NCBI GenBank assembly: GCA_937988885.1
Contig: CALKHR010000034.1
Span: 23,310-87,309, forward strand
DNA: 64,000 nucleotides
Direction: 5' to 3'
Source: an uncultured Roseiflexaceae bacterium
GTDB lineage: Bacteria > Chloroflexota > Chloroflexia > Chloroflexales > Roseiflexaceae
A program made the translations under genes and the position numbers. This document shows, piece by piece, positions 978 to 33,813 of the stretch (its first letter is position 1; each line of letters starts with the position of its first letter). The notes beneath the pieces were generated by a model. That model was given only the letters and a program-made list of their open reading frames with translations, made no database searches and was not told the origin of the DNA.

Positions 978-2072
978 ATGAGCGAGTGTCAACTGTACGA
1001 GTTTGTAGCGCTTGAGCAGTCACTCGATGCCAAAGCGCTGAAGTATGTGCGGGATCTATCGAGCCGCGCCCATGTCACCGCCACTCATGCACTATTCACC
1101 TATTCCTATGGCAATTTCCCTGCGGACCCATTAAACGTGTTAGCCAAGCACTACGACATGTTGCTGTACATGGCCAACTGGGGCACGCGACAATTAGCAT
1201 TTCGCTTTTCCAAGGGCACACTCGATGCCAAAGCGCTAGCGCCATACTACAACGGCACCGACGAAATCGAGATCAAGACCGTCGGCCAGTACGAGATTCT
1301 TGACATAACGATTCGTGATAATGAAGGTGGCGGTGAGTGGCTCTCCGACGAAGGGCAGATAGCGCCACTGATTGCCTTGCGCGGCGATTTGATGCGGGGC
1401 GATTTGCGGCTGTTGTATTTAGCCTGGCTCGCTGCTGCGATAGAGGAAGATCAACTTGAGCCGCCGGTGCCAGCGGGTCTCAACGAACTCAGCGCCCCGC
1501 TGCGTGCGTTCATCGAGTTCATCGGGATCGACCAAGATCTCGTTGTGGCGGCAGCCCGCGCAAGCGCTCCGCTCAAGGCCACCAAAGAGCCGATCGAGGA
1601 ATGGCTGCGACTGCTCCCCGCCACCGAGCGCGACGCGTTTCTGTTGCGTGCGGCGCAGGGCGAACTGATCAACGGCCCGCTGCTGCGGCGGCTGCGTGAG
1701 CTTGGTGGAGCTACCTGGCCGGATATCTCCACAGATTCACGGCGCAGCTTAGGGGAGATCATCGAACGCGCTGAGGAAGTTCAGCGGCTGCGCAAACAGC
1801 GTGAGCGCGCCGAGGCCGAAAAGGCGCGCCTTGCGAAACTTGCGAAGCTTGCCAAGCGCGAGGCAATGACGTGGGGCGAGGTCGCGGGGTATTTGACGAC
1901 GCGCAAGGCGTATGGCTACGACAAAGCCGTGGAGCTATTAGGCGAGTTGCATGAGCTGGCTGTGCACGAGAAGCGAGTGGATGCGTTCAACAAGCGCTTG
2001 CAGGAAGTGCTTGAGCCATACGCCAAATCGAAAGCCCTGCAGGAACGCCTGAAGCGGAGGGGGTTGTTGTAG
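978..2072 (+). CDS. hypothetical protein with C-terminal charged coiled-coil (KARLAKLAKLAKRE)
   Basis: Long ORF (track 768..2072); first ATG after upstream gene stop at 978; no recognisable family. Confidence 0.45.
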   Translation: MSECQLYEFVALEQSLDAKALKYVRDLSSRAHVTATHALFTYSYGNFPADPLNVLAKHYDMLLYMANWGTRQLAFRFSKGTLDAKALAPYYNGTDEIEIKTVGQYEILDITIRDNEGGGEWLSDEGQIAPLIALRGDLMRGDLRLLYLAWLAAAIEEDQLEPPVPAGLNELSAPLRAFIEFIGIDQDLVVAAARASAPLKATKEPIEEWLRLLPATERDAFLLRAAQGELINGPLLRRLRELGGATWPDISTDSRRSLGEIIERAEEVQRLRKQRERAEAEKARLAKLAKLAKREAMTWGEVAGYLTTRKAYGYDKAVELLGELHELAVHEKRVDAFNKRLQEVLEPYAKSKALQERLKRRGLL

Positions 2073-2142
2073 CGTCTTTATAGGAGGAAGATTTGCTTGT
2101 TCGATTTCGATGGAATGAGCATATCTTCCTGATCGAACATAT

Positions 2143-2171
2143 TTGCGAGCAATTCGACCCTTTTGTATAAT
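2143..2171 (+). promoter_or_regulatory. sigma70-like promoter TTGCGA-17-TATAAT, about 300 nt upstream of yhhQ-like gene
   Basis: -35 TTGCGA 2143-2148, 17-nt spacer, perfect -10 TATAAT 2166-2171; at the GC-drop boundary of the island. Confidence 0.3.
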
Positions 2172-2471
2172 GCGCGCGGTCATTTCTGCGCTATGCCATC
2201 ACGACTCCTCAAATCTCTATGCATCGTCGCACTTCCTCAAATGACAGTAGCGTTTTGACTGTAACGTTCAAAACGTGTCATCGTCGCTATAATCAGTGCT
2301 GAGTACTGGTGGAAGAACTACAGTGTAGTAGCGCATTGTTGTGCGCTGGTATCACCTGTGCAACATCGTGCGGTTTGAAAGAAAGAGAGGACAATTCGTC
2401 TCAAACTTGTTGGGAACGGTTGCCTAGGATGTTGAGTTCAAGTGTGCTGCTAATAGATAAGGAGGTTGTTT

Positions 2472-2999
2472 ATGGCGACTAAGGCAAAGTTGGGGATCAT
2501 TGCATTGATCAGCTATATCCTCACCATTTTTGCTGCCAATGTTGCAATTTCCTTGATAGGTGTTGTTCCTGTAGGTTTTGGCCTCATGGCCCCTGCTGGC
2601 GTTTATTTTGCTGGCCTCGCTTTTTCGCTGCGTGATGCTATTCAGGAGACGCTTGGGCGCCGTTGGGTTGTTGCCGCAATTTTGATCGGTGCGCTGGTTT
2701 CAGCGTTCCTTAGTGCACAACTCGCGCTTGCTAGTGGTATCGCATTTCTTCTAAGTGAGCTAGCTGATTTTGCTGTCTATACCCCACTTCGACAACGCTC
2801 TTGGTTTGCCGCTGTTGCTGTAAGCAACACTGTTGGTGCAGTAGTTGATAGTGCGTTATTCTTATGGTTAGCCTTTGGATCGCTAGAATTTTTGCTCGGC
2901 CAGATCACAGGTAAGCTTTGGATGACGCTCCTTGCAGTGGTGCTCATTACAGTGTGGCGGCGTTGGCAACTCAAATTCACCGCCTTCTCTCATAAGTAG
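2472..2999 (+). CDS. yhhQ: queuosine-precursor (preQ0/preQ1) transporter, VUT/YhhQ family (DUF165) integral membrane protein
   Basis: 175 aa, 5-6 TM helices, YhhQ-like sequence pattern (GLAFSLRDAIQE, FLLSELADFAVYTPLR); RBS AAGGAGG 6 nt before ATG 2472 (track ORF 2466..2999). Confidence 0.55.
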   Translation: MATKAKLGIIALISYILTIFAANVAISLIGVVPVGFGLMAPAGVYFAGLAFSLRDAIQETLGRRWVVAAILIGALVSAFLSAQLALASGIAFLLSELADFAVYTPLRQRSWFAAVAVSNTVGAVVDSALFLWLAFGSLEFLLGQITGKLWMTLLAVVLITVWRRWQLKFTAFSHK

Positions 3000-3044
3000 G
3001 TATTCGGTGAACTGCGAGACAACCATCTCGTTCAACAAATGTGA

Positions 3045-3632
3045 ATGGAAAAGGCAATGAGGATTCTCAACGTATCGGATCGCCAGATAACGTATGATGG
3101 CCGACAACTCGCGCCTCATTGGCTCTATCGTACGTTTAATCTATGCGGGGATGCTGCAGTGACTTTTATCGGGCCATGCAAAGTTGATCTCAGCGAAATG
3201 GTCGATATTGAGGATGTAAAAAATGCAGCGCCAATCTACAGTCCAATGATGCTTCATGTCATTGCTGAATTTTTTGGTAGTGACTTGCATCAAACAGTGT
3301 ATCGTCAGCGATTACTAATCGTGACTGCTAAGGAGTGGTTAGAGACCAAAACTGAGCGATCGGTGATCCGTAAGGGCGATGATCTCTACTTATCCCGTGC
3401 CGATGGAACCTTGGGTAAACTCTCAGTTTCAATCGCCACAGCAAGTATCACCTCAACTCTCATCCACACAGGTTTCAATATTCAGACCGATGGTACACCA
3501 GTGCCAACGGTCGGTCTCGCTGAACTTGGTATCGATCCGACTGAATTTGGCCAGGAATTGCTTCTGCGCTATGCAGAGGAAATTGAGGATATTTGGCTCG
3601 CCCGTTGTAAAGTGCGTGGGGTCAGCGAGTAA
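3045..3632 (+). CDS. hypothetical cytoplasmic protein (195 aa) inside the deazaguanine island
   Basis: Intact ORF, low-GC codon usage like its neighbours; no T-fold CxxxHGH or QueF motifs; family not recognised. Confidence 0.4.
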   Translation: MEKAMRILNVSDRQITYDGRQLAPHWLYRTFNLCGDAAVTFIGPCKVDLSEMVDIEDVKNAAPIYSPMMLHVIAEFFGSDLHQTVYRQRLLIVTAKEWLETKTERSVIRKGDDLYLSRADGTLGKLSVSIATASITSTLIHTGFNIQTDGTPVPTVGLAELGIDPTEFGQELLLRYAEEIEDIWLARCKVRGVSE

Positions 3633-3659
3633 ATACCCTCTCTTCCTAGGAGCGTAATG

Positions 3660-3691
3660 AGTGCTGTATTTTCATACGTTTCTGGTATGAT
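3660..3691 (+). promoter_or_regulatory. extended -10 promoter (TGgTATGAT) upstream of DUF328-like gene
   Basis: TGgTATGAT at 3683-3691, 62 nt upstream of ATG 3753; weak -35. Confidence 0.25.
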
Positions 3692-3752
3692 ACGCGGCTG
3701 GCACAGAATCTTAGGGTGCTAATGGGATGGTTGCATCATTCATGAGAAACGT

Positions 3753-4499
3753 ATGCGCTTGCTGATCCTAAATTGTTCTGCTCGCAAGCATGGCAGTGAA
3801 GATCTCATTCCTGCAATCGAGCGTTATGATGGTCCTGTTTGGCAGTTGCTGCGCAGTTATTTGCGCGACCATCAGCCTATAGTGCCACCTTTAGATGTAT
3901 ACGTCCTTTCAGCCGCGTTTGGCCTGATTCCTGCGGACAAGCCCATTCCCTGGTACGATCAAACAATGGATCCAGCACAGGCAGAATTGCTGCGTCCCTC
4001 GGTGTTGGCAACCTTCAAAACATTGATGCAGCGGGGATATGATCAACTCTGTCTTGGTTTGAGCCAACGGTATCTGCAAGCCATGCAAGGTTGGGAAGCT
4101 GTGGTACCTGTAACTGTACAAGTGACACTCACTGATGGCCCAATGGGTATGAAGTTGGGGCAATTACGTGCTTGGCTTAGGGGCTATGAATGGCAGCGGA
4201 ATGTTGAGCAACCACAACGCCTTGAGGCTGCTGAGCAACCGCGTGGTGAAGCTGTGATTGGTGGGGTAGCGCTTCGTCTCTCACAGGAAGAAGTTTTGGC
4301 TCAGGCACGCCTGGCGCTGGCGAATGATACAGTAGGTGCACAACGACGGTATCGTCATTGGTATGTGAGAATCGATGGAGCGCCTGTGGCCCCGAAATGG
4401 TTGGTGAGTCAACTGACCGGTTTGCCAACAAGCGCATTTGATGCGGGTGCTGCTCGTCGAGTATTGTTAGCGCTCGGCTTTGATATTGAGCATGTCTAG
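3753..4499 (+). CDS. DUF328/YaaA-like protein (DpdC-like) with extra about 70-aa C-terminal domain
   Basis: N-terminus LILNCSARK matches YaaA LILISPAKTL; LSAAFGLIPADKPIPWYDQTM matches YaaA [21 protein letters not shown]; 248 aa. Confidence 0.5.
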   Translation: MRLLILNCSARKHGSEDLIPAIERYDGPVWQLLRSYLRDHQPIVPPLDVYVLSAAFGLIPADKPIPWYDQTMDPAQAELLRPSVLATFKTLMQRGYDQLCLGLSQRYLQAMQGWEAVVPVTVQVTLTDGPMGMKLGQLRAWLRGYEWQRNVEQPQRLEAAEQPRGEAVIGGVALRLSQEEVLAQARLALANDTVGAQRRYRHWYVRIDGAPVAPKWLVSQLTGLPTSAFDAGAARRVLLALGFDIEHV

Positions 4500-4546
4500 G
4501 GCGCTCTGAGTTTGACAAGAATACCTACCAGACCTAGATCCTATCT

Positions 4547-4596
4547 AAAGATGTCGAGGCTTTGCATGATCGGCGCCTCGACATCTTTATTTTTAC
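4547..4596 (+). terminator. rho-independent terminator (14-bp stem aaagatgtcgaggc/gcctcgacatcttt followed by ATTTTTAC) between convergent genes
   Basis: Perfect inverted repeat 4547-4560 / 4575-4588 followed by T-run; stem shares the GATGTCGAGGC core of the dispersed palindromic repeat. Confidence 0.6.
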
Positions 4597-4608
4597 ATTG
4601 ACCAAGTC

Positions 4609-5781
4609 TTAAGCTTTAAGAGTCGCGCTCATTTGGAGTTGTTGATACAGTTGCCACGTATTGTGGAAACCTCGGCGTCGATTGCGGTTGTTACCACGGA
4701 AGATGATAACTTCGATGCCAATCTCACGACAGATACGGCATGGGCATTCTTGCCAAGGTCGGGCTTCAAGCGTTCGACGATAATCACTCTCTAAGCGTTC
4801 GCCTGGTGTTGTCCAAAGCGATGCGTACGCGAGTGCGTGCCGCAACGCTGCTTCTAATGTCGCTTCTCCTCGATCGTATGCACGTAGGATATTGAGGAGA
4901 TTTTGCTCTTGGCGAGAGATCTCGGTCTCATCAGCGTTTAACTTGCGAGCCAGGGTACGAGCTTCGGGGACTCGAATAGCTGTAAAGGTGAGATCACCAA
5001 TAAAGTAATTGCGGCGTCCATCCATCCAAGCGCGTCGGAGACGTGAAGCGCTATCGAAACTTGTCACCCCTAACTTCGCGAATTCTTGAATTTTTTCAGG
5101 GCGATTAACACCAAACAGATGAACTTGGGTGTCTAATCGTAATTCAGGCTGTATTTCCTTAAGGATGCGAAGAATCTCATTTGTTTGACTGCGAACCAAG
5201 CCACCGATCGCAATGTATTGATACCCCATGAGTAGCAGTTCGTGCACTGCTCTGCGATAGGAATCTGGACTCCACCCTTGAGCTACGCCGATAGGAGTAA
5301 AGGTATAACCACCGCTTTTGTGCAATTTGAGGAACTCCTCATTATTGCGCATGGTGATATTCCAGCGGCGCTCCTTTTCATCTTCGTGTTCTGCAAAAAT
5401 AAGATGATCGATCGAGACGCCGAGATCGAAGCCAAGGGTTTGATAGTATTCGAGCATTTCGGCGGTTTGATAAGGAGGCTCTGGTTGATCCCAATAACTA
5501 AACGCTCCGCAATCGCCGAGAACAAGGTGTTGTGCATCCTTAGGCCAACGCAAATAATTGTGTACTGATCCAAGGCTGACGATAGTTGCTTGCTTGCGAG
5601 TGTTATCTTCAATGACAGCACGTGAGAGTAACAGACCATCGTAGGGAGGGTCTGGATAGATCTCATGAGCATAACGATCATCTTGGTAAGGGTTGCGACC
5701 GACAGTATGAGTGTCTGTGAGAAAGTCATACCCGGGATCAACGCGGTCATCCCAGTCGGGAATATAGTATTGTATTGACAT
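4609..5781 (-). CDS. tRNA-guanine transglycosylase-like protein (DpdA-like 7-deazaguanine DNA transglycosylase candidate), 390 aa
   Basis: TGT-fold motifs: GDCGAF (substrate-pocket Asp region), GVAQGW, IAIGGL, zinc motif CPCRIC...H; no queuine-TGT signature. Confidence 0.65.
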   Translation of the reverse strand: MSIQYYIPDWDDRVDPGYDFLTDTHTVGRNPYQDDRYAHEIYPDPPYDGLLLSRAVIEDNTRKQATIVSLGSVHNYLRWPKDAQHLVLGDCGAFSYWDQPEPPYQTAEMLEYYQTLGFDLGVSIDHLIFAEHEDEKERRWNITMRNNEEFLKLHKSGGYTFTPIGVAQGWSPDSYRRAVHELLLMGYQYIAIGGLVRSQTNEILRILKEIQPELRLDTQVHLFGVNRPEKIQEFAKLGVTSFDSASRLRRAWMDGRRNYFIGDLTFTAIRVPEARTLARKLNADETEISRQEQNLLNILRAYDRGEATLEAALRHALAYASLWTTPGERLESDYRRTLEARPWQECPCRICREIGIEVIIFRGNNRNRRRGFHNTWQLYQQLQMSATLKA

Positions 5782-5805
5782 TGTTCATCTATCTATTTCT
5801 AATCG

Positions 5806-5837
5806 AAGAAAGGTTACTATAAGGTTCGACCTTTCTT
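5806..5837. promoter_or_regulatory. inverted repeat AAGAAAGGT-N14-ACCTTTCTT in divergent promoter region (candidate operator)
   Basis: 9-bp perfect arms 5806-5814 / 5829-5837 between the two divergent TGT-like genes. Confidence 0.3.
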
Positions 5838-5854
5838 GAGCGTGCTATCGTTTC

Positions 5855-5883
5855 TTGACAGATCATGAGGGGAAGGATATGCT
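5855..5883 (+). promoter_or_regulatory. sigma70-like promoter TTGACA-17-TATGCT for second TGT-like gene
   Basis: Consensus -35 5855-5860, 17-nt spacer, -10 TATGCT 5878-5883, about 95 nt upstream of ATG 5980. Confidence 0.35.
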
Positions 5884-5979
5884 ATTTTCGCTTGAGATGC
5901 AGCGTTACTGCTTTGTAGACCGTAAACATGCGCTCTGCATGATCTGTTTTAACCCCACCAGTTTTTAATATGTCTTCTT

Positions 5980-6876
5980 ATGGATTACTATGTTTCTTGG
6001 ACACACAGCGATCCTATTTATCAACAATACTTGGAAAATGTGCGGGCACTCGTCAGCCCTCCGAATGTGAATCGTACGTGGCATCCTAGCGATTGGGTTA
6101 CATTACCGAATGCTTTAATTCTCGATAGTGGAGCTTACCAATATCATCGAGAAGGTCGTAGCCCTGATCCCGCAGCGGTACTTGAACGACAACTTCAGAT
6201 GGTTGCCAACCTCACGATACCAGTAGGTATCTGCCATCTTGATGTGCCTTTGCCTGGTACACGCAACCTTGCAGAACTAGAGCGTCGCGTGGAACAGAAT
6301 TTAGTGAACGCACGTTGGCTGATACAAAGGGCTCAACAACTCGACTTGCCCTCGAATATTCGCCTGATCGGTGTAATTCAAGGTGCAACAAGCGAACAAA
6401 TTTATAGCGTCGCTTGTGTTCTCGCAGAACTTGGCTATCAATCGTTTGCTCTTGGATCATTGGCTCGTATGGTGGCATACGCGAAGGATGAACTGCTTCG
6501 GCGGGTTGAGTCAGCGCTTGAGGCTATTGGTTCGGGCCTGCATGTGCTTGGTGTGAGTTCCGCACCACTCCTTCCAGAACTTAGGCGTATTGGTGTCGAA
6601 TCAGCAGACTCAGGAGCTCCCATCCACGAGGCATGGCGCGGGGGAGTATTTTATAGCCATCCCTTCAGGCGCTATAAAATTGAAAGTCCTTATTTCAAAG
6701 AGTGGCAACGAAGTTATAGTTTTGCTGAACTTCTCTCTTCCCCATTGCCATGCGCTTGCCCTGTTTGTCAGCAAGATAGTAGCCAATTACTACAACCTCA
6801 AGGCAAGAAATTCGTTAACCTACGGGCGATTCACAACTATTACCACCTCGTACAGGAACTAGGCTCTTCAACATAG
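5980..6876 (+). CDS. short TGT-like protein (second DpdA-like paralog), 298 aa
   Basis: ALILDSGAYQY (TGT DSGGFQ-like catalytic Asp motif), VIQGATSEQ, zinc motif CACPVC...H; divergent from the 390-aa paralog. Confidence 0.6.
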   Translation: MDYYVSWTHSDPIYQQYLENVRALVSPPNVNRTWHPSDWVTLPNALILDSGAYQYHREGRSPDPAAVLERQLQMVANLTIPVGICHLDVPLPGTRNLAELERRVEQNLVNARWLIQRAQQLDLPSNIRLIGVIQGATSEQIYSVACVLAELGYQSFALGSLARMVAYAKDELLRRVESALEAIGSGLHVLGVSSAPLLPELRRIGVESADSGAPIHEAWRGGVFYSHPFRRYKIESPYFKEWQRSYSFAELLSSPLPCACPVCQQDSSQLLQPQGKKFVNLRAIHNYYHLVQELGSST

Positions 6877-7112
6877 CCCTAACGAGAGGCGAGTTTCGCT
6901 AATTTGTGCGATTGCCGCGCAAGTATACTCGACAGGGTCATGTAGGTCAAGAAGCCTTTTGGTAGATTGTATAAGTGGTTAAGTTGACATAAAATTAAAA
7001 GGCTTGACTATCGTTTTACCTAATGTACGACTCTTTGGCAGATCGACCCATCGAGTACTCCATGCCTAGAATAGATCTTACCAAACGCTATTCATACCGA
7101 TGGAGGTGCTCA

Positions 7113-8005
7113 ATGGATCGCGATGATTTTATCATCACTGTCTACTGTTTGGTGTGCGAGCAGTATCAGGCTATTTAGAGCCGCTATTCGCTCCGACGCG
7201 GGGATTTGCACCTGCCCTAATCGATGCCGAGGTGATCACACTCGAAATCTGTGGTGAGTACTTCAAGTTGAACACCGATCAAGACATCTTTGACTACTTT
7301 CGTACCCATTATCGGACTTGGTTTCCCGCTTTGACTGAACGCTCGCTGTTTGTTCGTCAAACTGCCAATCTCTGGCAAGTCAAGGCAGCGATACAGCAGC
7401 GTCTTACTCAAATCAGCGGTCAAGCTGCTGATCCGGTGCAAGTGATTGATACGCTGCCTTTACCAGTCTGTGCTCTCACACGCGCACCACGCGAGCGTTG
7501 CTTCACGATGCAGGCCGAGTATGGTTACTGTGTGGCCAAACAGATGCACTACTATAGTTTCAAACTTGGTTTGCGAGTGGCACGCTTGGGAATGATTACA
7601 TCGTTTCCGCTCTTGCCAGCCCGCCCACACGATACCAATATGCTTGACGATCTTGTCGATGGATGTACCGGTTTGACGCCAGCTGATAAAGGTTTTATCG
7701 ACGCGTTCCGTCAAGCCTTACTAGAAGAACGCCACGGTGTTCTGCTTGTAACGCCACCGCGTAAAGGGATGGCAGCCAGCAGCACGCCTGCTCTGCTGAA
7801 AGCCTGCCGATGCATCCGCAAGCGAGTGGAAATAGTTGCCTCGCAACTCACGGAACGATTTGCGATCTCGCGTATTCGGGTCCGTGATCTGTGGCACTTT
7901 CAGCAATGGCTGATACGCAAGGTGCTGGCGCGCACCATTGTGGTGTTTCTCAATCTGCAACTTGGTCGCGCTCCGCTTGATTTGGATAGCCTGGTCTCAG
8001 CTTAA
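7113..8005 (+). pseudogene. IS982-family transposase, disrupted by +1 frameshift near 7150-7175
   Basis: N-terminus MDRDDFIITVYCLVCEQYQAI (frame 0) runs into TAG; rest of the IS982-like DDE transposase continues in frame +1 from about 7153. Confidence 0.7.
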
Positions 8006-8132
8006 TTCTCTAAAAGTGTTGCACATTAGTATTACAACGCAGGGTTCAGGAAACACGGACTGCACTTGACCATAATAAGTGACATGGTATTCTCTCCTCA
8101 CAACGTTTCACACAATAGCAAGGAAGAACACC

Positions 8133-9561
8133 ATGTCCACGACTATTGTAGCACCGACTTGCCCATTGCCTTCCTGCAACCTGACCGAGCAGGATGTCCA
8201 GGAGTTACGTTCACAGCTCGACGCCTTTGTCACTCAATTTAACTCCTGTTTTGCTCGTGCCGACCAGCACGCTTGGGCTCACGCGTATCTCCAGGGTTTG
8301 CTTAGCGATCTTCCACGCAAGTCTATCAAACCTCGCGTTGGCTTTTGGTTTGTCGATACGCTCGCTACGAGCCTTCATCGGAAACAGCCCTTGGGACTAT
8401 GAACCGCTCTTGGCCCAGCAGCAAGCCCTCATGGCTCAAACTCTTGGTGACGAGGATGGCGTCTTGTTGGTCGATGAATCTGGCATGCCCAAACAAGGTC
8501 TGCATTCCGTTGGTGTCGCTCGCCAATACTGTGGCGCGCTTGGCAAGGTTACCTCCTGTCAGATGGGTGTGTTTATCGGCTATGCCACCACCAAGGGCTG
8601 TATCCTGGTGGATGGTCGCTTGTTTGTACCAGAGTGCTGGTTTGATGACGACCATGGTACCTTACGTGCCGAGGTTGGCATGCCTGCCGAGTTGACCTTT
8701 CAAACCAAACCTCAATTGGCTGTGCAATTGCTTGAGGCGATTGTCAAACGCGGTGTCTTGCAGGCGCGCTGAGTGGTAGCTAATGCGCTCTATGGCGATA
8801 GTCCTGCCTTTCGTGATGCAGTCGCAGCGATGGACCTATGGTACTTTACCGAGGTAGCCTGCTCGCAACTGATCTGGCGACGTCATCCGGCAGTGATTGT
8901 TTCTGCCTGGAAGGGTAAAGGACGTAAACCGACGCGTATGCAACTGAAAACACCGAGCAATCAACCATATCGTGTGGATGAACTGCTGTGGCGCTTGCCA
9001 AAGAGAGCTTGGATACGCGGAACCGTCAAGGAGGGCAGTAAAGGACCAATTGTGTGTGACTTCGCGTTTGTGTGTGTGACCGAAGCACGTGCTGGACTGC
9101 CAGGACCGCGACTGTGGCTGGTGATCCGACGAAACGTAAACGATCCCAGAGTGGTGAAGTACTATCTGTGCAATGCGCCAGAAACGATCGATACGGCACG
9201 GCTGGTGCGGATGTGTGGGATGCGCTGGCCGATTGAGCGGACATTTGAGGTCAGCAAAGACGAACTGGGCCTGGATCAGTACGAAACGCGCTCGTGGCTG
9301 GGTTGGCACCATCATATGAGTTTAGTGTTGCTAGCGCACCAATTTTTGGTATGGGTACGGGTACAGTGGCAGGAGCGAGCGCCAACCCTGACGCTGGCAC
9401 AGGTGCGACTATTGTTGACAAGTGTGATCCCGAAGTTGGTGCGGGACGCGACACGGGCGCTGATGATGGTGTGCTACTATCAACGGCGCAACCATGCCGC
9501 CTACCTTTCACATCGCAAACGCAAGTTGGCTTCGCTCGGTGCGCTTGATCCTGCGTTGTAA
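8133..9561 (+). pseudogene. IS701-family (IS4 superfamily) transposase, inactivated by a frameshift (about 8395-8405) and an in-frame TGA replacing conserved Trp (8770-8772)
   Basis: Three track ORFs (8079-8402, 8194-8772, 8773-9561) together form one IS701-type transposase (YGDSPAFRDAV, RWPIERTFEVSKDELGLDQYETRSWLGWHHHM); VLQAR-TGA-VVANALYGDS where intact copies have W. Confidence 0.7.
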
Positions 9562-9894
9562 TATTAGGTTATCGTTTTATATTGTTACTCGCACCAATCT
9601 AGGTACTTATGTCCGAGAGTGTTTAGGCCGTGTTATTGGGCGATGGTGGGTTTGATGGTACTGAATTGCAAGAGCATCTGCGAAACTCAATTGGTCATAT
9701 GTTTGAGGTAGTTATAATCACACCAACTCAGATGATGTGATGACGAAAGCCTACGGTTCAATCACACCGCAGGCCTTCTGAGAACACACTTCAAGGAACC
9801 AATCTGAGAAATCTAGATGCTATTGTAAAGTTGTACAAGAAGCAAGCATATAGTGTTATCGTTTTGTTGCAATCATAAAACGTGGTGATATACA

Positions 9895-11094
9895 CTATGG
9901 GGCGTATGGTGTTCCCTGCATTCCTGATTTATCACAAAAGTTTTTGAAATCGCAAACAGTACAGTTTTCTGGTTTTGGAATGGCTTCCCAAGACTGTGAA
10001 ATAGATGCACCTGCTTTCTCTTTGCTGATCGATAACTCAATATTTGAAACAACATTATCAAATTCTTGTAGACTTTGGCTGATCGTATGCTTTGTAATTG
10101 GTACTATGTGGATAGCACGTTGCAGACGATAGGCATCTGAAAGTTGTGGCAATGTATCTCTACGTCTCTTCGGATTCCAGGATGCCAAAACCTCTGCATC
10201 CTTCCCATTTGGCAGAATATCTGTTTTGGGTGCTCCATTGCCATGAATCTCTTCCCATAGATGTGTCAGATCCGTTTGGCTTGGCTCTAATTCATTCACA
10301 AATATGAGCATGCCAGCTAATACCTGATGGGAGTTTGCTTGTTGTTCACGTAGCCAAGCATAGGTTTGCAATTGCCATTCGTATTTTTGCAATGTATTAT
10401 CGGCAGGATCGTTGCTGGGGCGTCGCATGCCTTTATAGTCCACAATTATCTCAAACTGAGGTCGTGATAGATGTGACTGTTGCTTATGTGCCTCAGAGAT
10501 CATTTGCTGAATTTCTGAGTGGTTGAGGAGTGCTTGTAAAAGGATGTTGCTTGGATCGACTGCAGCCAATTGCAGAGATGTTAAAACATCTACTACCCCT
10601 GAGACTTCATAGTAATTGGAACGGGGCGTCGTCCCTTGTAGGTCTGGCATAGTTCGAATGCCTCGGAGACGCACTTCTGCTTGATCGATTAACAGAAATA
10701 AATATCTACCAATCTGGTTAATTAGCTTACGTGCGCGCACTTGAGCTATCTTAAGCATGGCTTGATTTCGATAGCGTAAACCCTGTGCAGCTAAGCGATT
10801 AATGATAGTGTTTTCAATATCTTCAAGCGTAGGAATATCCCAAGGGAAGGTCAATAATGGTCCAATGCCCTCGCCCGCCATCATAGCCTCTCGTTGATCG
10901 TGCCAACGTCGGTATGCTTCCTCCATAACACCGTGAATAAATTGGCCGAACCATAGTTGTACAGGTTTGGAGGGTGGTAGTGCACCACGATTATGATATC
11001 GATATTGGCGACCACAACTCATAAAGGATAAGAGATCGCCTGTTAAGCTATAGGAAGGAATAATATATGGTTCAGGCCGAGTTGACAGGCTCAC
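9895..11094 (-). CDS. Cas4/AddB-like PD-(D/E)XK nuclease with four-Cys Fe-S cluster motif
   Basis: N-terminal Cys (FMSCGRQYRY), RecB motif EIIVDYKG, C-terminal CTVCDFKNFC; 21 bp downstream of the UvrD-like gene (operon). Confidence 0.6.
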   Translation of the reverse strand: MSLSTRPEPYIIPSYSLTGDLLSFMSCGRQYRYHNRGALPPSKPVQLWFGQFIHGVMEEAYRRWHDQREAMMAGEGIGPLLTFPWDIPTLEDIENTIINRLAAQGLRYRNQAMLKIAQVRARKLINQIGRYLFLLIDQAEVRLRGIRTMPDLQGTTPRSNYYEVSGVVDVLTSLQLAAVDPSNILLQALLNHSEIQQMISEAHKQQSHLSRPQFEIIVDYKGMRRPSNDPADNTLQKYEWQLQTYAWLREQQANSHQVLAGMLIFVNELEPSQTDLTHLWEEIHGNGAPKTDILPNGKDAEVLASWNPKRRRDTLPQLSDAYRLQRAIHIVPITKHTISQSLQEFDNVVSNIELSISKEKAGASISQSWEAIPKPENCTVCDFKNFCDKSGMQGTPYAP

Positions 11095-11115
11095 AATATC
11101 ACCTCGTACTTTACT

Positions 11116-13455
11116 TTAAATATATACAATATTAGGTACGATTGGCCAACGTAGACCATTCGGAGAAGGATCTCTCCGATTCCAACCCAGTGCAATATTA
11201 GGGATTTTTGAATTGGGTTGATGCGTTTTTGGATCACGCAATCCTACCAATAAAAGGACATCTTGTGGACGGCTGAAAGCTACGAAATATAAGCGAAGTA
11301 AATCATCAAAGGCTCGGTCAAGTGCTGAACGTTTCGGTGTCAAGAGTGGAGAATGAGGACGAAGCGCATCCTCCAAGGCTTGCGGGCGACCATGTTGAGT
11401 GGGGAAGCGCTTAAAATGTTGTTTCCAATGGTTCCTTTTAAAATCGCTACCCACATCGACGATCACTAGAGGAAACTCTAAGCCTTTTGCTTGATGGATA
11501 GAAAGAATATTGAGACGATCCCGCGGAGTGGTTTCTAAAAGATCCTCATCGATTTCAATGTGGCCAGCAGCGAGAGGAGCTAAAATATCGTTGATTGCAG
11601 CCTCAACCGAAGCCTCATCAAATGAAGTTCCTGTGAAGATTTCTGCATTGTATCGACTGAAATGCGCAGATTGAGCCATAATGCGCGTAATAGCTTCCAA
11701 ATACACTAATCCTTCAGCATCCTCTTGCATTTCAGGTATCCATACGATTAAGTTGTAGAGTAACTCTATCAACCTAACAGACTGTGGCCAACCAGAACCA
11801 TGTTGTGGTTTCCGATCTTTCCAAGCTTGTACAAACTCCCCTAATGAATGCCGACGTATTCCTGGTGCTGGTGGGTTTGTTGCAATATATTCATTCGCCT
11901 TAGAACGCCAATCATTGAGGGTGTTGTATACATCGTTGGGTAATTTCCTGATGAGTCTGTTGGTCTGGACATCACCTTTGGGATCAATGCACTCTAGGAT
12001 TAAACCACAAATGCGTGCAACACTTTCAATTTCACTAAATTCCTGTCCCCGTGGATTAAAGACTCGGATCGATGGCAATAGGGCTTGTCGTAATAGCAAT
12101 GGCAAGCGTGGTTTTTTGCTACTGCTATATTCTTGTGGTGAACTTGATAGGAGAGCAATATCACCAACAGAGCCAGCCGAGGGGTTAATTGGAATATGAA
12201 CGTTACCGTGTTGTGTTGCGATAGTTCTTCCCTTATCAACAACGTCTTGAATAAAGGTTACGAGATCTGTAGCGAGACACTGAAGATCATCGCGAAACAT
12301 TGCTAAGATAGGGTATTCAACCGATGGTGTTGCTCGTCCTGCGATTAAAGGTGGCTTTCCTGCTACACGTGCCGCACTATAGTCAGGATCGTGTTGAAGG
12401 TACTTCATCGTATATTCAACAATTGAAGGGGTTGATCGATAGTTAGTATTTAAATAAATTGTTTGAGAAAGGATCCCTGTAGCGTCTTCGAGTCGATGTA
12501 CAAAATCACGGAACAAATCAACTGTTGCTCCGCGAAAACGATAGAGTGATTGATCATCATCTCCAACTACAGTTATCGATCCTTTATTTGCATGAGCAGC
12601 ACGAGCTAGAGTGAAATAGATTGACTCTTGAAGTAGATTGGTATCTTGATATTCATCTACTAAAACTACTTGAAGCGTATCTGTAAAACGTTTTAATGAA
12701 CCATCTTTTAGTCGTTGATAAAAACTTTGTTCTAATGATGCAAAATCGAGCACCTGTATGCTATCAAGATATTGTTCATAGGCGTCAATTACCTCAAAAA
12801 GTGCATTCACTTCAGTAGGTTGAGAGGCTCGAAATTGTTCTCTATCAACTTGATCATGAATGAAGCGTTGGCGGATCTCGCTAGCAAGTGAGGCAATATG
12901 ATGCGTAAGAATAGAATCTTCGCAGCATAAATTTTTGAGGTACAATTTTAGCGCTAGATTATTCCAAGCATTAGTTTCAAGGACTCCCTTACGGAACATA
13001 AACGTTCGACCAATAAACTCATCGATCATTACTGGAGGCTGCATTCCTGCTGAACGAAAATCAAGAAGCACCTGTTGTGCAATACTGTCAAGAGTTCCTA
13101 TGAATATTTGATTGAGATCGAGGCGTTCTAACCACTGTTGCTGTTCCTGATTTGCTTTAGATTTTAGGGTATCACGTAAATTATCTCCCCATCCAAGGAT
13201 GCGCGAGCGCAACTCAGCAGCAGCTCGCTTGGTAAAGGTTGTTGCAAGGATAGTGCTCGGAGGCACCTTATCCACAAATATAAGTTTTAATACTCGGAGT
13301 GCCAGTACAGTAGTTTTGCCACTACCTGGACCTGCCACTAGAAAGAGCGAATGCCCTTTATCCGCTGTTACAGCCTGATGTTGTTGTTTATTTGTAGTAA
13401 GATGTTTATCTAGTGCGACAGCAGTAGCATCTAAAAAATCTGGTAACTGAAACAT
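11116..13455 (-). CDS. UvrD/Rep/PcrA-family SF1 DNA helicase
   Basis: Motifs I GPGSGKTT, Ia TTFTKRAAAEL, II VLVDEYQDTN, III VGDDDQSLYRFRGA, IV NYRST, VI IHQAKGLEFPLV. Confidence 0.85.
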   Translation of the reverse strand: MFQLPDFLDATAVALDKHLTTNKQQHQAVTADKGHSLFLVAGPGSGKTTVLALRVLKLIFVDKVPPSTILATTFTKRAAAELRSRILGWGDNLRDTLKSKANQEQQQWLERLDLNQIFIGTLDSIAQQVLLDFRSAGMQPPVMIDEFIGRTFMFRKGVLETNAWNNLALKLYLKNLCCEDSILTHHIASLASEIRQRFIHDQVDREQFRASQPTEVNALFEVIDAYEQYLDSIQVLDFASLEQSFYQRLKDGSLKRFTDTLQVVLVDEYQDTNLLQESIYFTLARAAHANKGSITVVGDDDQSLYRFRGATVDLFRDFVHRLEDATGILSQTIYLNTNYRSTPSIVEYTMKYLQHDPDYSAARVAGKPPLIAGRATPSVEYPILAMFRDDLQCLATDLVTFIQDVVDKGRTIATQHGNVHIPINPSAGSVGDIALLSSSPQEYSSSKKPRLPLLLRQALLPSIRVFNPRGQEFSEIESVARICGLILECIDPKGDVQTNRLIRKLPNDVYNTLNDWRSKANEYIATNPPAPGIRRHSLGEFVQAWKDRKPQHGSGWPQSVRLIELLYNLIVWIPEMQEDAEGLVYLEAITRIMAQSAHFSRYNAEIFTGTSFDEASVEAAINDILAPLAAGHIEIDEDLLETTPRDRLNILSIHQAKGLEFPLVIVDVGSDFKRNHWKQHFKRFPTQHGRPQALEDALRPHSPLLTPKRSALDRAFDDLLRLYFVAFSRPQDVLLLVGLRDPKTHQPNSKIPNIALGWNRRDPSPNGLRWPIVPNIVYI

Positions 13456-13858
13456 AATTACGGAACAGTCCTTTGCTATTTATAAGGTTCCTATGTTATG
13501 CAGCTTTACTATAGTGGGGATTGATAAAACATTACCTATCGAGTGATGCTAATTATTTACTAGAAAGCAAAAATTACAATTGAGTAAGGAGTCTCATTGG
13601 GAAACCGTTTGTAAAGGAGGAGTAAGAGACTCTACAAACTAGAGTTTACATTGGTTGCTCTATGGGCAGGCGTGCAAATACGTTGTAGAGTGAGAGTGGG
13701 TTGTAGCTGTGTTCGAAGAGTGTATTGAGTTTGCCCTTGCACCATATACGTCCCATTGAACTTCCCATATAACGACGAACTCTTTTTATTCTACCAACAC
13801 GTAAGCACCAGAACAGCACCACGGAGCACAACTCCTTCCTAACAGTTCCACATTGCTA

Positions 13859-14980
13859 TTACCCCCGTGGCGTGCGGTACGGGCCAAGGTATCGCTGGAC
13901 CAAGGCGAGGTCGAACTGATTTTGTAAGGTGGTGCGGGCGCCTTCGGCGGTGGCGTCGAGCGCGCGCCCGATCTGCTTGCAGATCGCGTCGGCCAGGAAC
14001 TGCGGCAGTGGCTCCTGCACGCCATTGACCTGCAACGCGCTGCGGAAGGTCGCGAGCACCGCCCCCAACGGCTCGCGGGCGATCAGCGCGGCGGGCAGTT
14101 CGAGCCGATACGCTGGCCCTGTCTCGTCGGGGCGGTAGTAGATCACGTAGAGTTGGCCGTAGCCATGCTCGATCGCCATACGGCGCTCATTGAAATCGCG
14201 CAGATTGTTTGAGCGGTAGCCCGTCAGCAAGTGCGGGCGATCCTGCTTGATCAGCGGTACGGGCAACGAATGTTCACCCGCCTCCAGCACCGTGCTCCAC
14301 AGCGTGCGATCGGTGACGGTGCCCGAGAGGTGCGGCGCCAGTGCTGCCACATCGTCGGCGGCGGTGGCCTGCTTGGGGTGCGCAACCACACGCCGACACT
14401 CCAACACCAATCGCCAGTCCTGCTCATCGAAGAACTGTTCGAGCACCCTGCGGAACGGCGCCCACCAGCCCGGCATCTGCTCGCTGCGCGAGTCCTGCGC
14501 AAAGCGCATCAGCAGGCGGTTGACCTCGAGCAGCGCCGAGTAGAACGAACCATCCAAAACGAACAGACCTGTGCTGGTGGCGCGAATGCGCTTCGCCAAC
14601 AGCCGCAACTCCAGGATCGTGCGTAGACCGCCTAGAATGCTCTCCAACTCCTCGACGGGCGGCATCAGTTGCACCAGTACCGATTGATCGGTTAGGCTCG
14701 CCTCCTCGACGGCGACCGCCGCAACCGCCGCGAACGTTGCGCCAGCGGCGGGCACGGTGGCATGTGCGCCGTCAACCGCGCACAATCGCCGCACCGGGCC
14801 GTTGGGAGCCTTGCGAATCCGGCGCGCCAAAGCCTCGCGCAGACGGTCGCGGTCGCCTTCGAGTTGGAGCAACGTCTCGCGACAGGCATCGGCGCAGGCG
14901 TTGATCGCCGCGAGCACCGCCGCCGGCAACGCCGCAGGATCAAGCTCGTTGGGAGTTCCTGTCAAAGTGTGTGTGGTCAT
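13859..14980 (-). CDS. hypothetical protein, possible NurA-like nuclease domain
   Basis: 373 aa GC-rich ORF; VLDGSFYSALLE resembles the NurA (I/V)DGS catalytic motif; no HerA partner adjacent. Confidence 0.3.
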   Translation of the reverse strand: MTTHTLTGTPNELDPAALPAAVLAAINACADACRETLLQLEGDRDRLREALARRIRKAPNGPVRRLCAVDGAHATVPAAGATFAAVAAVAVEEASLTDQSVLVQLMPPVEELESILGGLRTILELRLLAKRIRATSTGLFVLDGSFYSALLEVNRLLMRFAQDSRSEQMPGWWAPFRRVLEQFFDEQDWRLVLECRRVVAHPKQATAADDVAALAPHLSGTVTDRTLWSTVLEAGEHSLPVPLIKQDRPHLLTGYRSNNLRDFNERRMAIEHGYGQLYVIYYRPDETGPAYRLELPAALIAREPLGAVLATFRSALQVNGVQEPLPQFLADAICKQIGRALDATAEGARTTLQNQFDLALVQRYLGPYRTPRG

Positions 14981-16299: not shown

Positions 16300-16681
16300 T
16301 CCACACGCAGCGCAGTTTGCTGGGCGCTGGATCGGCGAGACGCAGGGCTACGAGATGCCCGCGCATATTTGGGATATTCGCGTGGTCGGCGATACGCTGT
16401 ATATCGAATCGCGCTGGGAGAACGATACCGCACTGGGGCGGATGTCCGGCAGAATGCACGCCGAGCAGGCGAGCTTCACGATAGGCCGTCATACCGCCGT
16501 GCTCGTCGATCCCCAGCACTTTATCATTCCTGGCTGGGATACCAACGATACGCGCGGCGGTATTGGCCCCGATTATGATGTGGTCTTTTCGCGCCCCGGC
16601 CTGCCCGAACTACAAGCCAGCCAAGTGTGGGAACGCTTTCGGGCCGCGCAGTCGGAGGGCACGCCCGAAGCGCAAGACTAG
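16295..16681 (+). CDS. hypothetical protein (about 128 aa)
   Basis: ORF overlapping stop of upstream gene by 4 nt (ATGCCTAA); no family recognised. Confidence 0.35.
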   Translation, partial: PNPHAAQFAGRWIGETQGYEMPAHIWDIRVVGDTLYIESRWENDTALGRMSGRMHAEQASFTIGRHTAVLVDPQHFIIPGWDTNDTRGGIGPDYDVVFSRPGLPELQASQVWERFRAAQSEGTPEAQD

Positions 16682-17841
16682 CTGTGCTTCAGCAGAGGCA
16701 CCACCTGCCCAAACGGGAAGCGCTGCGCTTGCAGGCCGCCCGGCGTCACCACCCACAGCACCGGCAAACGCGGCGCTTGCTTGGGAAAATGCCCGAACCC
16801 ATCGGTCATGTAAATCGCCACCGATGGCTCCCACGGCGGGCGGTGCTTGGGGATCTGCTCGAAGAACGGGCGAAAGTCGGTGCCGCCGCCGCCCATTGGC
16901 TGCGGCAACTCGCCACGGGCATTGAGCTTATGCGGGCCGTACAGCTTGGTATCGGCGAAGTAGAGCAGGCAGCGCAGATGCGGGTAACTGCGCATAATCG
17001 CCTGTACCTCGCTCAAAAAGAGTTGCACGCTGGCCTGATCGATCGAGCCGCTGGTATCCACGCCCAACAATACCGTTAGGCTTGTGCTGCTGATCGTCTC
17101 CAGGTACATGCCCCGGCCCACGAAGCGTCGGTCGTAATCCTCGAAGTCGGTGGGCGTTTTGACCAGGAACCGCCACAGCAGGCTGCGCCAATCGAGTTTG
17201 CAGGGCGAGAGCGCCCCCAGTTCGCGCGCGAACTCACCCGCTCCATGGCCGATCTGCTGCTGTTCGGCGTACTCTCGGGCCTGCTCCTGCGCGTGCTGCC
17301 AGTGCCGCTCAAGCTCCTGCTTCCGCGCCTCGGCATCGCCTGTCTGCTCGCCTGATGCGTTCTCGGCATCGGCGGGCGGCCCCTCCAACAGATCATCGGG
17401 TTGGTTCTTCCCCTGCTTCTGCTGATCCTGCTGCTTCTGAATCAGGATGTCGTAGACTTCCTCGGTGCTCAGATGCTCCAACTGTGGGTTGCGCAGCCCG
17501 CCTTCCGGCAATTCATACCGCTCCTTGAGCAGCATGCCGTTGATCACAATATCGGCGGCGACGTTCCACAGCTTCGGGTCGCGCCCGCCGCGCCGTGGCA
17601 AGTGCAGCAGCGCCGCGTGCAGCACCTCGTGCGCCAAGAGTCCATCGAGTTGCGCGGGTGTCTGTTTCACCACGAACTCTGGATTGACATAAATCGTCCG
17701 TCCGTCGGTGGCGGCGGTTGGGATGTGATGGCTGATCTCAAACTGGGCGAATAGCGCCAACGAACTGAAGAACGCGCTGCGCTGTTGCATGCGTTGAAGT
17801 GAGGCGCTGATCGCTTTGGCGGTGGCGGGATCGAGTTTCAT
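16678..17841 (-). CDS. VWA-domain protein with N-terminal putative zincin-like metallopeptidase domain (DUF2201-like, HEVLH motif), MoxR partner
   Basis: HEVLHAALLH motif, C-terminal VWA (LGVDTSGS ... MTDG); 4-nt overlap with upstream AAA ATPase gene. Confidence 0.65.
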   Translation of the reverse strand: MKLDPATAKAISASLQRMQQRSAFFSSLALFAQFEISHHIPTAATDGRTIYVNPEFVVKQTPAQLDGLLAHEVLHAALLHLPRRGGRDPKLWNVAADIVINGMLLKERYELPEGGLRNPQLEHLSTEEVYDILIQKQQDQQKQGKNQPDDLLEGPPADAENASGEQTGDAEARKQELERHWQHAQEQAREYAEQQQIGHGAGEFARELGALSPCKLDWRSLLWRFLVKTPTDFEDYDRRFVGRGMYLETISSTSLTVLLGVDTSGSIDQASVQLFLSEVQAIMRSYPHLRCLLYFADTKLYGPHKLNARGELPQPMGGGGTDFRPFFEQIPKHRPPWEPSVAIYMTDGFGHFPKQAPRLPVLWVVTPGGLQAQRFPFGQVVPLLKHS

Positions 17842-33579: not shown

Positions 33580-33813
33580 TATCCCTCCCCGATTGCTAGT
33601 GAATAAATTGTTATTCTGAGCCTGTATTTTCGCATTGACAAGCATTTCGATCGCTGCTAGGATAGGGCTACCCCGCAATCAACATCCCGCTCTCGTCTTC
33701 GCCCAAAGGTACCTACAACCCTTATCTTGGTTTCTTGGCTGTCCCGCATTTTGGCGGTGCTACAGCGCGTTGGCGTTTTCCCTTATCTGCTGTTGTCGCG
33801 AAAAGGAGTTGGT

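Follow-up and report, generated by a model that had tools for sequence, protein, structure and literature searches.

A partly decayed low-GC island in a Roseiflexaceae bacterium probably encodes a DpdB-less variant of Dpd-type DNA modification and restriction with two TGT-family transglycosylases

Bacterial Dpd systems mark DNA with 7-deazaguanine bases. What is encoded by an island that carries two TGT-family genes and no gene for DpdB, and does it hold an intact system? The question is raised by positions 2073 to 13858 of a 64,000-nucleotide stretch of contig CALKHR010000034.1 (assembly GCA_937988885.1) from an uncultured Roseiflexaceae bacterium; we refer to the whole stretch as the window. 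We conclude that the island is probably a copy, horizontally acquired and by now partly decayed, of a Dpd-type modification and restriction system, and that this system is of a DpdB-less kind with two TGT-family transglycosylases (Table 1). A sequence-only reading of this DNA had proposed an undescribed Dpd layout and a new variant. The two-TGT, DpdB-less layout had no description in the literature that we searched, which excluded the PNAS 2016 and Mol Microbiol 2018 Dpd papers, and this part of the proposal stands; the copy itself, however, is decayed, and one linkage was already published, since yhhQ inside dpd clusters, implying salvage, had been noted before (PMC5699537).

The first of the two enzymes, a protein of 390 amino acids (aa), is identified by model scores and structural alignment as a true, orthodox bDpdA. 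It reaches 465.3 bits on the NCBIfam DpdA equivalog NF041059 (cut-off 200) and 432 bits on the PADLOC DpdA model, and the structure of DpdA from S. Montevideo (Sm; 7UI4) aligns with it end to end at an E value of 4.5e-94. Residues D90, D125 and D243 correspond to Sm D95, D130 and D256, which mutagenesis defined as catalytic or recognition residues (PMC10164549); the zinc site (C346/C348/C351/H373) is intact, and Gln168 takes the place of Sm His181. Scores on the tRNA enzymes fall far under their cut-offs (Tgt 34.5 bits, cut-off 306.75; TgtA 44.5 bits, cut-off 350), which upholds the earlier placement of the island as a Dpd-type DNA locus rather than a tRNA-TGT locus.

The second enzyme, TGTL, has 298 aa. 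Both proteins match Pfam TGT PF01702, and both retain the CxCxxC...H motif that the sequence-only reading had pointed out (in TGTL, C258/C260/C263 with H285/H289), but they are not comparably divergent as that reading had implied: one is an orthodox bDpdA, whereas TGTL, as judged from profile searches, is a separate small clade whose nearest relative is DpdA. On the DpdA equivalog TGTL scores only 57.6 bits, and the tRNA TGT models give 43.3 bits for TgtA (cut-off 350) and 47.8 bits for tgt_general (cut-off 47.6), with no extra domains. Among solved structures its profile matches DpdA 7UI4 best (E 3.5e-18), followed by archaeal TGT (4e-11) and bacterial TGT (5e-9), and the 130-residue Ins8 insertion of DpdA is missing from it. 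A profile search of 1.84 billion cluster representatives returned 45 TGTL-like proteins at E<=1e-30, nearly all of about 300 aa or fragments, below which scores drop to a zone of about 100 bits that holds 400-aa bDpdA and fusion proteins of 650-740 aa; the clade amounts to about 45 clusters at 50% identity. An AlphaFold2 (AF2) model shows a compact TIM-barrel TGT fold (pLDDT 90.7) from which the tRNA-binding extension is absent. Because the catalytic and zinc residues are invariant in 39 homologs down to 34% identity (D49, D88, Q134, D210, C258/C260/C263 and H285/H289), TGTL should be catalytically competent. It is not one of the phage enzymes DpdA1-DpdA4, since tblastn against 50,697 phage records and a search of PHROGs found no homolog and its likeness to viral DpdA-like models (template modeling (TM) score 0.5-0.67) is weaker than to cellular TGT and DpdA (0.7-0.78). 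A phage origin of TGTL was considered and rejected for the lack of any phage or PHROG match.

DpdB itself is missing. Using two Bradyrhizobium DpdB proteins as tblastn queries, we found none in the 64-kb window or in 43 TGTL loci, and no island protein matches an NCBIfam or PADLOC DpdB model; the absence claimed by the sequence-only reading holds. A GTDB-wide pattern scan and contig look-ups gave 41 usable TGTL loci from Chloroflexota (Roseiflexus, Oscillochloris, Chloroflexales), Bacillota (Paenibacillus, Bacillus, Laceyella, Desulfosporosinus, Dethiobacter) and other phyla, with partners defined by clustering of open reading frames (ORFs). TGTL adjoins a P-loop ATPase of about 950-1190 aa in 34 of the 41 loci and a protein of about 256 aa, c2, in 31. 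Based on DpdH models (NF041065 73 bits, cut-off 450; PADLOC DpdH E 5e-13), the ATPase is a distant relative of DpdH. A plasmid of Deinococcus taeanensis (locus L137, NZ_CP083460 58270-78747) carries canonical DpdE, DpdF and DpdH and a DUF6884-TGT fusion together with a TGTL-c2-DpdH-like trio, and because the 253-aa neighbor of its canonical DpdH weakly matches the c2 profile (E 1e-5), c2 is probably DpdG-like. This arrangement suggests that the trio contains paralogs of DpdG and DpdH.

The trio occurs in three layouts. Chloroflexota have [Vut1-DUF366]-DUF6884-(HhH-GPD)-DpdA with TGTL divergent, then a convergent operon ending in c2-DpdH-like-c10. Bacillota have Vut1, a DUF6884-DpdA fusion, c5, TGTL, c2, the DpdH-like gene, QueC/D/E and an SNF2-type helicase. 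The third layout lacks bDpdA and combines TGTL, c2 and the DpdH-like gene with QueC/D/E, DpdD (PF28109), a phospholipase D (PLD) DpdK-like protein and a 1507-aa helicase; in some loci with QueCDE, DpdD, DpdJ and DpdK, TGTL is the lone TGT-family gene. The presence of TGTL, QueC/D/E and DpdD at loci without bDpdA argues that TGTL can itself be a DNA transglycosylase. Moreover, with DpdB blank in TGTL loci and present in 92% of dpdA genomes in an earlier survey (PMC5699537), the trio and DpdB look like alternatives. The Bacillota protein c5 (about 264 aa; about 9100-9894 of L027, and in other Paenibacillus and Bacillus loci) invariably separates the DUF6884-DpdA fusion from TGTL. A faint Pfam DndB match (E 0.03) is seen in one member, BLAST found no DpdB match in the c5 loci, and c5 could be a reduced DpdB relic.

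The window copy falls short of these relatives. Roseiflexus sp. SKYB12 has, at about 31.6-52.5 kb of JANXAL010000025.1, an intact locus in which a packed operon on the strand opposite TGTL encodes UvrD (791 aa), a Cas4-like nuclease (392 aa), a 370-aa protein, c2, a DpdH-like protein (942 aa) and c10. Paenibacillus clusters are intact as well, for example that of P. amylolyticus (NZ_CP194938, 2.918-2.939 Mb). Between its nuclease gene and TGTL, the window has just two insertion sequences and a c10 stump. The sequence-only reading had overlooked both insertion sequences (7020-9566) and the stump, as well as the DUF366 gene. Lying directly past the TGTL stop, the stump reads ...LLDLHDPVEYTCAAIAQISETR... 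and corresponds to the conserved C-terminal motif of c10 (family motif LDLLRLVEYTxxSxxLVxERR), with a stop codon and unrelated sequence ahead of it; among 2006 six-frame window peptides searched with a c10 hidden Markov model (HMM) it ranks best (E 0.0029; runner-up 0.34). In intact relatives c10 comes after the DpdH-like gene. No remnant of the 370-aa, c2 or DpdH-like genes was found in any frame of the 64 kb, and the closest TGTL relative (80% identity) retains helix-turn-helix (HTH), c10-like and 944-aa ATPase genes. The insertion sequences are bounded by 17-nt inverted repeats, imperfect in the first (7020-7036 / 8013-8029; 8027-8043 / 9550-9566 in the second), and their region has no nucleotide similarity to plasmids. 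The simplest reading is a deletion of about 5 kb, associated with the insertion sequences, from the restriction operon. Copies of the contig with identical genes are present in many metagenome assemblies, and the deletion is common to all sampled copies. An intact system is therefore not borne out: this copy is truncated, and both Roseiflexus and the 80%-identity relative keep the missing genes.

That closest relative, on a 7791-bp contig (JGI 3300071358), sits beside genes for an HhH-GPD glycosylase and a nucleoside 2-deoxyribosyltransferase, which in turn adjoin a TGT-like gene of 499 aa. L011, L019, L020 and L051 likewise have an HhH-GPD glycosylase with DpdA, and the window has none.

What could serve as the restriction arm? 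None of the DpdD-K genes occurs in the window, which instead has a UvrD helicase and Cas4-like Fe-S nuclease operon. The sequence-only reading had named this pair as a restriction arm unlike DpdD-K, and domain scores confirm both genes (Table 1). The nuclease has a PD-(D/E)XK core (DYK at 219-221, QxxxY at 243-247) and the four cysteines of the Cas4/AddB type (C27 and C378xxC381x5C387), but it is not a Cas4 equivalog (19.8 bits, cut-off 65). Identity to paired homologs in Roseiflexus, Picosynechococcus and Bradyrhizobium is 64%, 46% and 39% for the helicase and 62%, 40% and 37% for the nuclease. On a plasmid of Picosynechococcus PCC 73109 the pair lies beside dpdA, the plasmid also carrying a DUF6884-DpdA fusion and, flanked by two DEAD-box helicases, a second short TGT; on a plasmid of Bradyrhizobium 41S5 it lies beside a canonical dpdA, two dpdB copies and queCDE, with DpdD-K absent. 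As homologous pairs adjoin dpdA in all three genera, the pair probably serves Dpd-type systems as an alternative effector arm, consistent with the role first proposed for it. We also considered Gabija, as the helicase matches GajB models (129 bits), and rejected it because GajA is absent; the partner is a Cas4-like PD-(D/E)XK nuclease.

An alternative that we consider unlikely, though one to be taken seriously, is that the Vut1-DUF366-DpdC-like-DpdA-TGTL genes form an orphan modification module, laying down an epigenetic or anti-restriction mark, and that the UvrD/Cas4-like genes are an independent defense pair that happens to share the island. The pair is missing from most TGTL loci, whose downstream effectors differ (NACHT, a 1659-aa protein, SNF2 helicases, DpdD/J/K), yet it stands directly beside dpdA in three further unrelated replicons. 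In the window the two insertion sequences separate it from the modification genes, whereas in Roseiflexus it is co-oriented and closely packed with the DpdG/H-like genes. Finally, its GC content (0.42-0.44) is under that of the modification genes (0.47-0.52), but its divergence from Roseiflexus (62-64% identity) is about that of DpdA and TGTL (59-60%).

The 248-aa protein had been described as a DUF328/YaaA-like, DpdC-type protein; the YaaA fold and the likeness to DpdC stand, but by Pfam it is not DUF328. It scores 28.8 bits on DUF6884, just under the cut-off of 30, and matches PADLOC DpdC models weakly (E about 1e-4). The motifs CxxxK and LSAxxG, given for DUF6884 by Pfam curators (PMC11701544), are invariant across its family, some homologs match both PF21818 and PF03883, and one genome-mining study assigned DpdC to DUF6884 (PMC11888242). 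The DUF6884 domain is fused N-terminally to DpdA in Bacillota, in Picosynechococcus and in one metagenomic relative, which is strong evidence of joint function.

The YhhQ-type transporter reported by the sequence-only reading is indeed embedded in the island (177 aa; PF02592 39.4 bits, cut-off 27.2). A match to phrog_4899 (126 bits) spans the whole protein, homologs of its subfamily adjoin dpdA in 15 of the 41 related loci, and it presumably imports a 7-deazaguanine base. Tblastn found no QueC, QueD or QueE in the 64-kb window, as the earlier reading had stated, and an Rfam search of 1800-14200 at E<=1 returned no preQ1 or other riboswitch upstream of the transporter. Both here and in relatives (Vut1-DUF366-DUF6884 operons), the genes for the transporter and the DpdC-like protein have tightly packed between them a gene for DUF366, a family for which a whole-word literature search found no paper and whose sole solved relative is the uncharacterized PH0223 (PDB 2DDZ, E 1e-34). 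Of 49 metagenomic loci 4 kb or longer (L054, L068-L070, L082-L134), 41 have DUF366 adjoining queC. These loci are of two kinds: Chloroflexota have QueC-QueD-QueE-DUF366, and contigs from gut and rumen have HEAT-repeat protein-QueC-DUF366-SPOR protein. This conserved adjacency ties DUF366 to the precursor pathway, and its gene neighborhood suggests that it works in 7-deazaguanine base metabolism.

In several Chloroflexota metagenome contigs (L056, L059-L062, L065-L067) the genes run Vut1-DUF366-DUF6884-NurA (497 aa)-HerA (594 aa) and end with a weak TGT-like protein of about 350-373 aa (PF01702 24.7 bits). The DUF6884-NurA-HerA layout may represent one more deazaguanine-type system, its effector being NurA/HerA.

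Based on the family assignments established above, we propose the following workings, of which the chemistry is what we infer. The YhhQ/Vut_1-type permease would take in a 7-deazaguanine base such as preQ0, and DUF366 would act on, or together with, this precursor. bDpdA would swap a guanine in DNA for preQ0 through the Asp pair D90/D243, and the DUF6884/YaaA-fold protein, in the role of DpdC, would convert preQ0 in DNA to the amide ADG. TGTL would be a second transglycosylase, partnered in intact relatives by the DpdG-like protein and the DpdH-like P-loop ATPase; this trio would take the place of DpdB, working as an insertion machine driven by ATP or else reading the modification status. The ancestral restriction operon would have run UvrD helicase-Cas4-like nuclease-370-aa protein-DpdG-like-DpdH-like-c10, and the two insertion sequences would have removed its last four genes, leaving the modification genes, TGTL and the helicase and nuclease intact. 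Given available precursor, the locus would probably still modify DNA, and discriminating restriction has most likely been lost in this copy.

A bolder reading, which we offer tentatively and at less than even chances, joins two claims: that TGTL, the DpdG-like and the DpdH-like protein are an unrecognized three-protein machine that replaces DpdB, and that DUF366 is a missing component of preQ0 metabolism together with QueC. The machine would then define a widespread Dpd branch in Chloroflexota, Bacillota, Deinococcota and Cyanobacteria, in which TGTL would insert 7-deazaguanine with ATP-driven help or probe target guanines to read their modification status for restriction.

Several points weigh against our conclusion that the island is a Dpd-type system. 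DpdA from S. Montevideo requires the DpdB ATPase in vitro (PMC10164549), and because DpdB is absent and the candidate DpdG/H-like substitutes are deleted, DpdA may be inactive in this copy. The presence of dPreQ0 or dADG in the DNA is a prediction from genes, and the role of TGTL is read from gene context. The transporter falls under the cut-offs of the YhhQ equivalogs (TIGR00697 36.2 bits, cut-off 50.95; NF008406 28.3 bits, cut-off 252), and preQ0 synthesis genes are absent from the 64 kb. The sub-cut-off DUF6884 score and faint DpdC matches of the 248-aa protein mean that its chemistry may differ from that of DpdC. Finally, neither Picosynechococcus nor Bradyrhizobium has a recognizable counterpart of the 370-aa Roseiflexus protein.

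There is little chance that the island is instead the remnant of a phage or prophage DNA-hypermodification cassette, serving viral evasion of restriction rather than cellular defense. It is low in GC, it contains insertion sequences, and the transporter and the DUF6884 protein match PHROGs (phrog_4899, as above, and phrog_5935 at 32 bits), but phage structural, integrase and replication genes are absent from it, TGTL has no match in phage records or PHROGs and resembles viral DpdA-like models less than cellular enzymes, and the relatives carry restriction genes of the DpdH, DpdD, DpdJ and DpdK types. Scarcely credible is a tRNA modification locus in which both enzymes, fed by YhhQ salvage, insert queuosine or archaeosine precursors into tRNA: both match PF01702 and JGI annotates TGTL homologs as '7-cyano-7-deazaguanine tRNA-ribosyltransferase', but the 390-aa protein scores as DpdA and far below Tgt and TgtA, TGTL is too short for a tRNA-binding C-terminal domain and has DpdA as its best solved relative, and the neighbors are of defense or DNA type (DpdH-like, DpdD/J/K, helicases, nucleases).

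The island was probably acquired horizontally. Its GC content is 46.8%, against 59.6% in the rest of the window (14-64 kb), and individual island genes range from 0.42 to 0.54, while the two flanking genes have 0.595 (768-2072) and 0.657 (a NurA gene at 13859-14980), so the sharp fall in GC first reported across the island is real. The window has no tRNA gene, and the island ends show no direct or inverted repeats of at least 10 nt; a promoter and terminator scan of the island gave counts no higher than shuffle expectation and is uninformative. The NurA-domain gene at the right edge has native GC and no HerA partner nearby; we rejected it as a member of the system, as it is native in GC and unlike the NurA of the DUF6884-NurA-HerA clusters. 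On the left edge (2-2072) lie a UPF0020 (RlmKL-like) methyltransferase with a weak N6_Mtase match and an adjoining 434-aa ORF with no family match, preceded in longer contigs by a 706-aa gene; these left-edge genes might be another defense or modification unit. Elsewhere, the window holds a DUF2201 metallopeptidase/VWA protein paired with an AAA_5 (MoxR-like) ATPase (16678-18896), a second patch of lower GC (about 0.49-0.55) with two large ORFs of 695 and 572 aa and no Pfam match (20080-23928), and a 1773-aa protein with RTX calcium-binding repeats and cadherin-like, Big and lamin-tail domains (33727-39048), presumably a secreted adhesin. A native protease is 54% identical to one in L012, which, like the homologs of the island, points indirectly to Chloroflexota.

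Table 1. Coordinates of the island and its features in the window
Feature	Position	Strand	Evidence
Low-GC island	2073-13858	.	GC 0.468; nine features
Short Vut_1/YhhQ-type membrane transporter, 177 aa	2466-2999	+	Pfam PF02592
DUF366 protein, 195 aa	3045-3632	+	PF04017 205.7 bits
DpdC-like protein, 248 aa	3753-4499	+	N-terminal DUF6884/YaaA-fold domain and conserved C-terminal domain of ~80 aa
bDpdA, DNA-guanine transglycosylase, 390 aa	4609-5781	-	NCBIfam NF041059, PADLOC, 7UI4 alignment
TGTL, compact second TGT-fold transglycosylase, 298 aa	5980-6876	+	TGT PF01702 43 bits
c10 gene, 3' stump	6871-6978	-	c10 HMM and C-terminal motif
Insertion sequence 1, DDE_Tnp_1_3 transposase (ORF 7154-8005)	7020-8029	+	Pfam 52 bits
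Insertion sequence 2, split DDE_5 transposase (ORFs 8079-8402, 8194-8772, 8773-9561)	8027-9566	+	DDE_5 117 bits
Cas4-like Fe-S PD-(D/E)XK nuclease, 399 aa	9895-11094	-	PDDEXK_1 47.6 bits
UvrD-like superfamily 1 (SF1) helicase, 779 aa, in operon with nuclease	11116-13455	-	UvrD-helicase 164 bits

The biochemistry of Dpd systems has been solved for the modification arm (DpdA/B/C) only, which leaves two questions: how the mark is read in restriction, and for what purpose DpdA requires an ATPase (PMC10164549). A DpdB-free branch with a second intact transglycosylase and DpdG/H-like proteins offers a handle on both. In addition, the UvrD and Cas4-like module beside dpdA in three phyla is a candidate compact alternative effector arm, and the linkage of queC to DUF366 gives a structurally solved domain of unknown function (DUF) a testable function. 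The window copy also illustrates how such islands decay, the DpdG/H-like genes, presumed to be the sensing part, having been lost to insertion sequences while the modification genes and the nuclease are intact.

The best-studied relative is the S. Montevideo Dpd system (dpdA-K; PMC10164549, PMC5699537), with which the island shares an orthologous DpdA in which both the catalytic Asp pair and the zinc site are conserved, a DUF6884/YaaA-fold protein in the position of DpdC, and residence on a mobile island; the island's relatives add DpdH-like and DpdG-like proteins and, at some loci, DpdD, DpdJ and DpdK. Unlike the S. Montevideo system, the island and the TGTL loci searched lack DpdB and have an extra TGTL clade tightly coupled to DpdG/H-like genes. 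In the island, a UvrD and Cas4-like pair replaces the DpdE/F/J helicases and the DpdK PLD nuclease, DpdA has Gln at the position of Sm H181, a DUF366 gene is present and queCDE are absent. Phage DpdA1-DpdA4 (PMC6884629, PMC10516641) are likewise short TGT-fold enzymes that insert 7-deazaguanines without DpdB, and TGTL is of similar size (about 300 aa), but TGTL has no sequence similarity to phage records or PHROGs, is chromosomal or plasmid-borne and is linked to a DpdH-like ATPase.

The proposed BREX-related capture (BRC) systems (PMC12839542) have also recruited a TGT-family enzyme to a DpdB-less defense, with an NTPase proposed as the substitute for DpdB (PMC12839542). They are, however, built on HerA/FtsK, PglZ, BrxC-like and STAND components, none of which is in the island, and lack DpdC, whereas the island has a bona fide bDpdA plus TGTL. 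Two TGT-fold paralogs also make up the eukaryotic heterodimeric TGT (QTRT1/QTRT2), and by analogy a DpdA-TGTL heterodimer is a possibility; in contrast to the non-catalytic QTRT2, TGTL retains all catalytic residues and is also found without DpdA.

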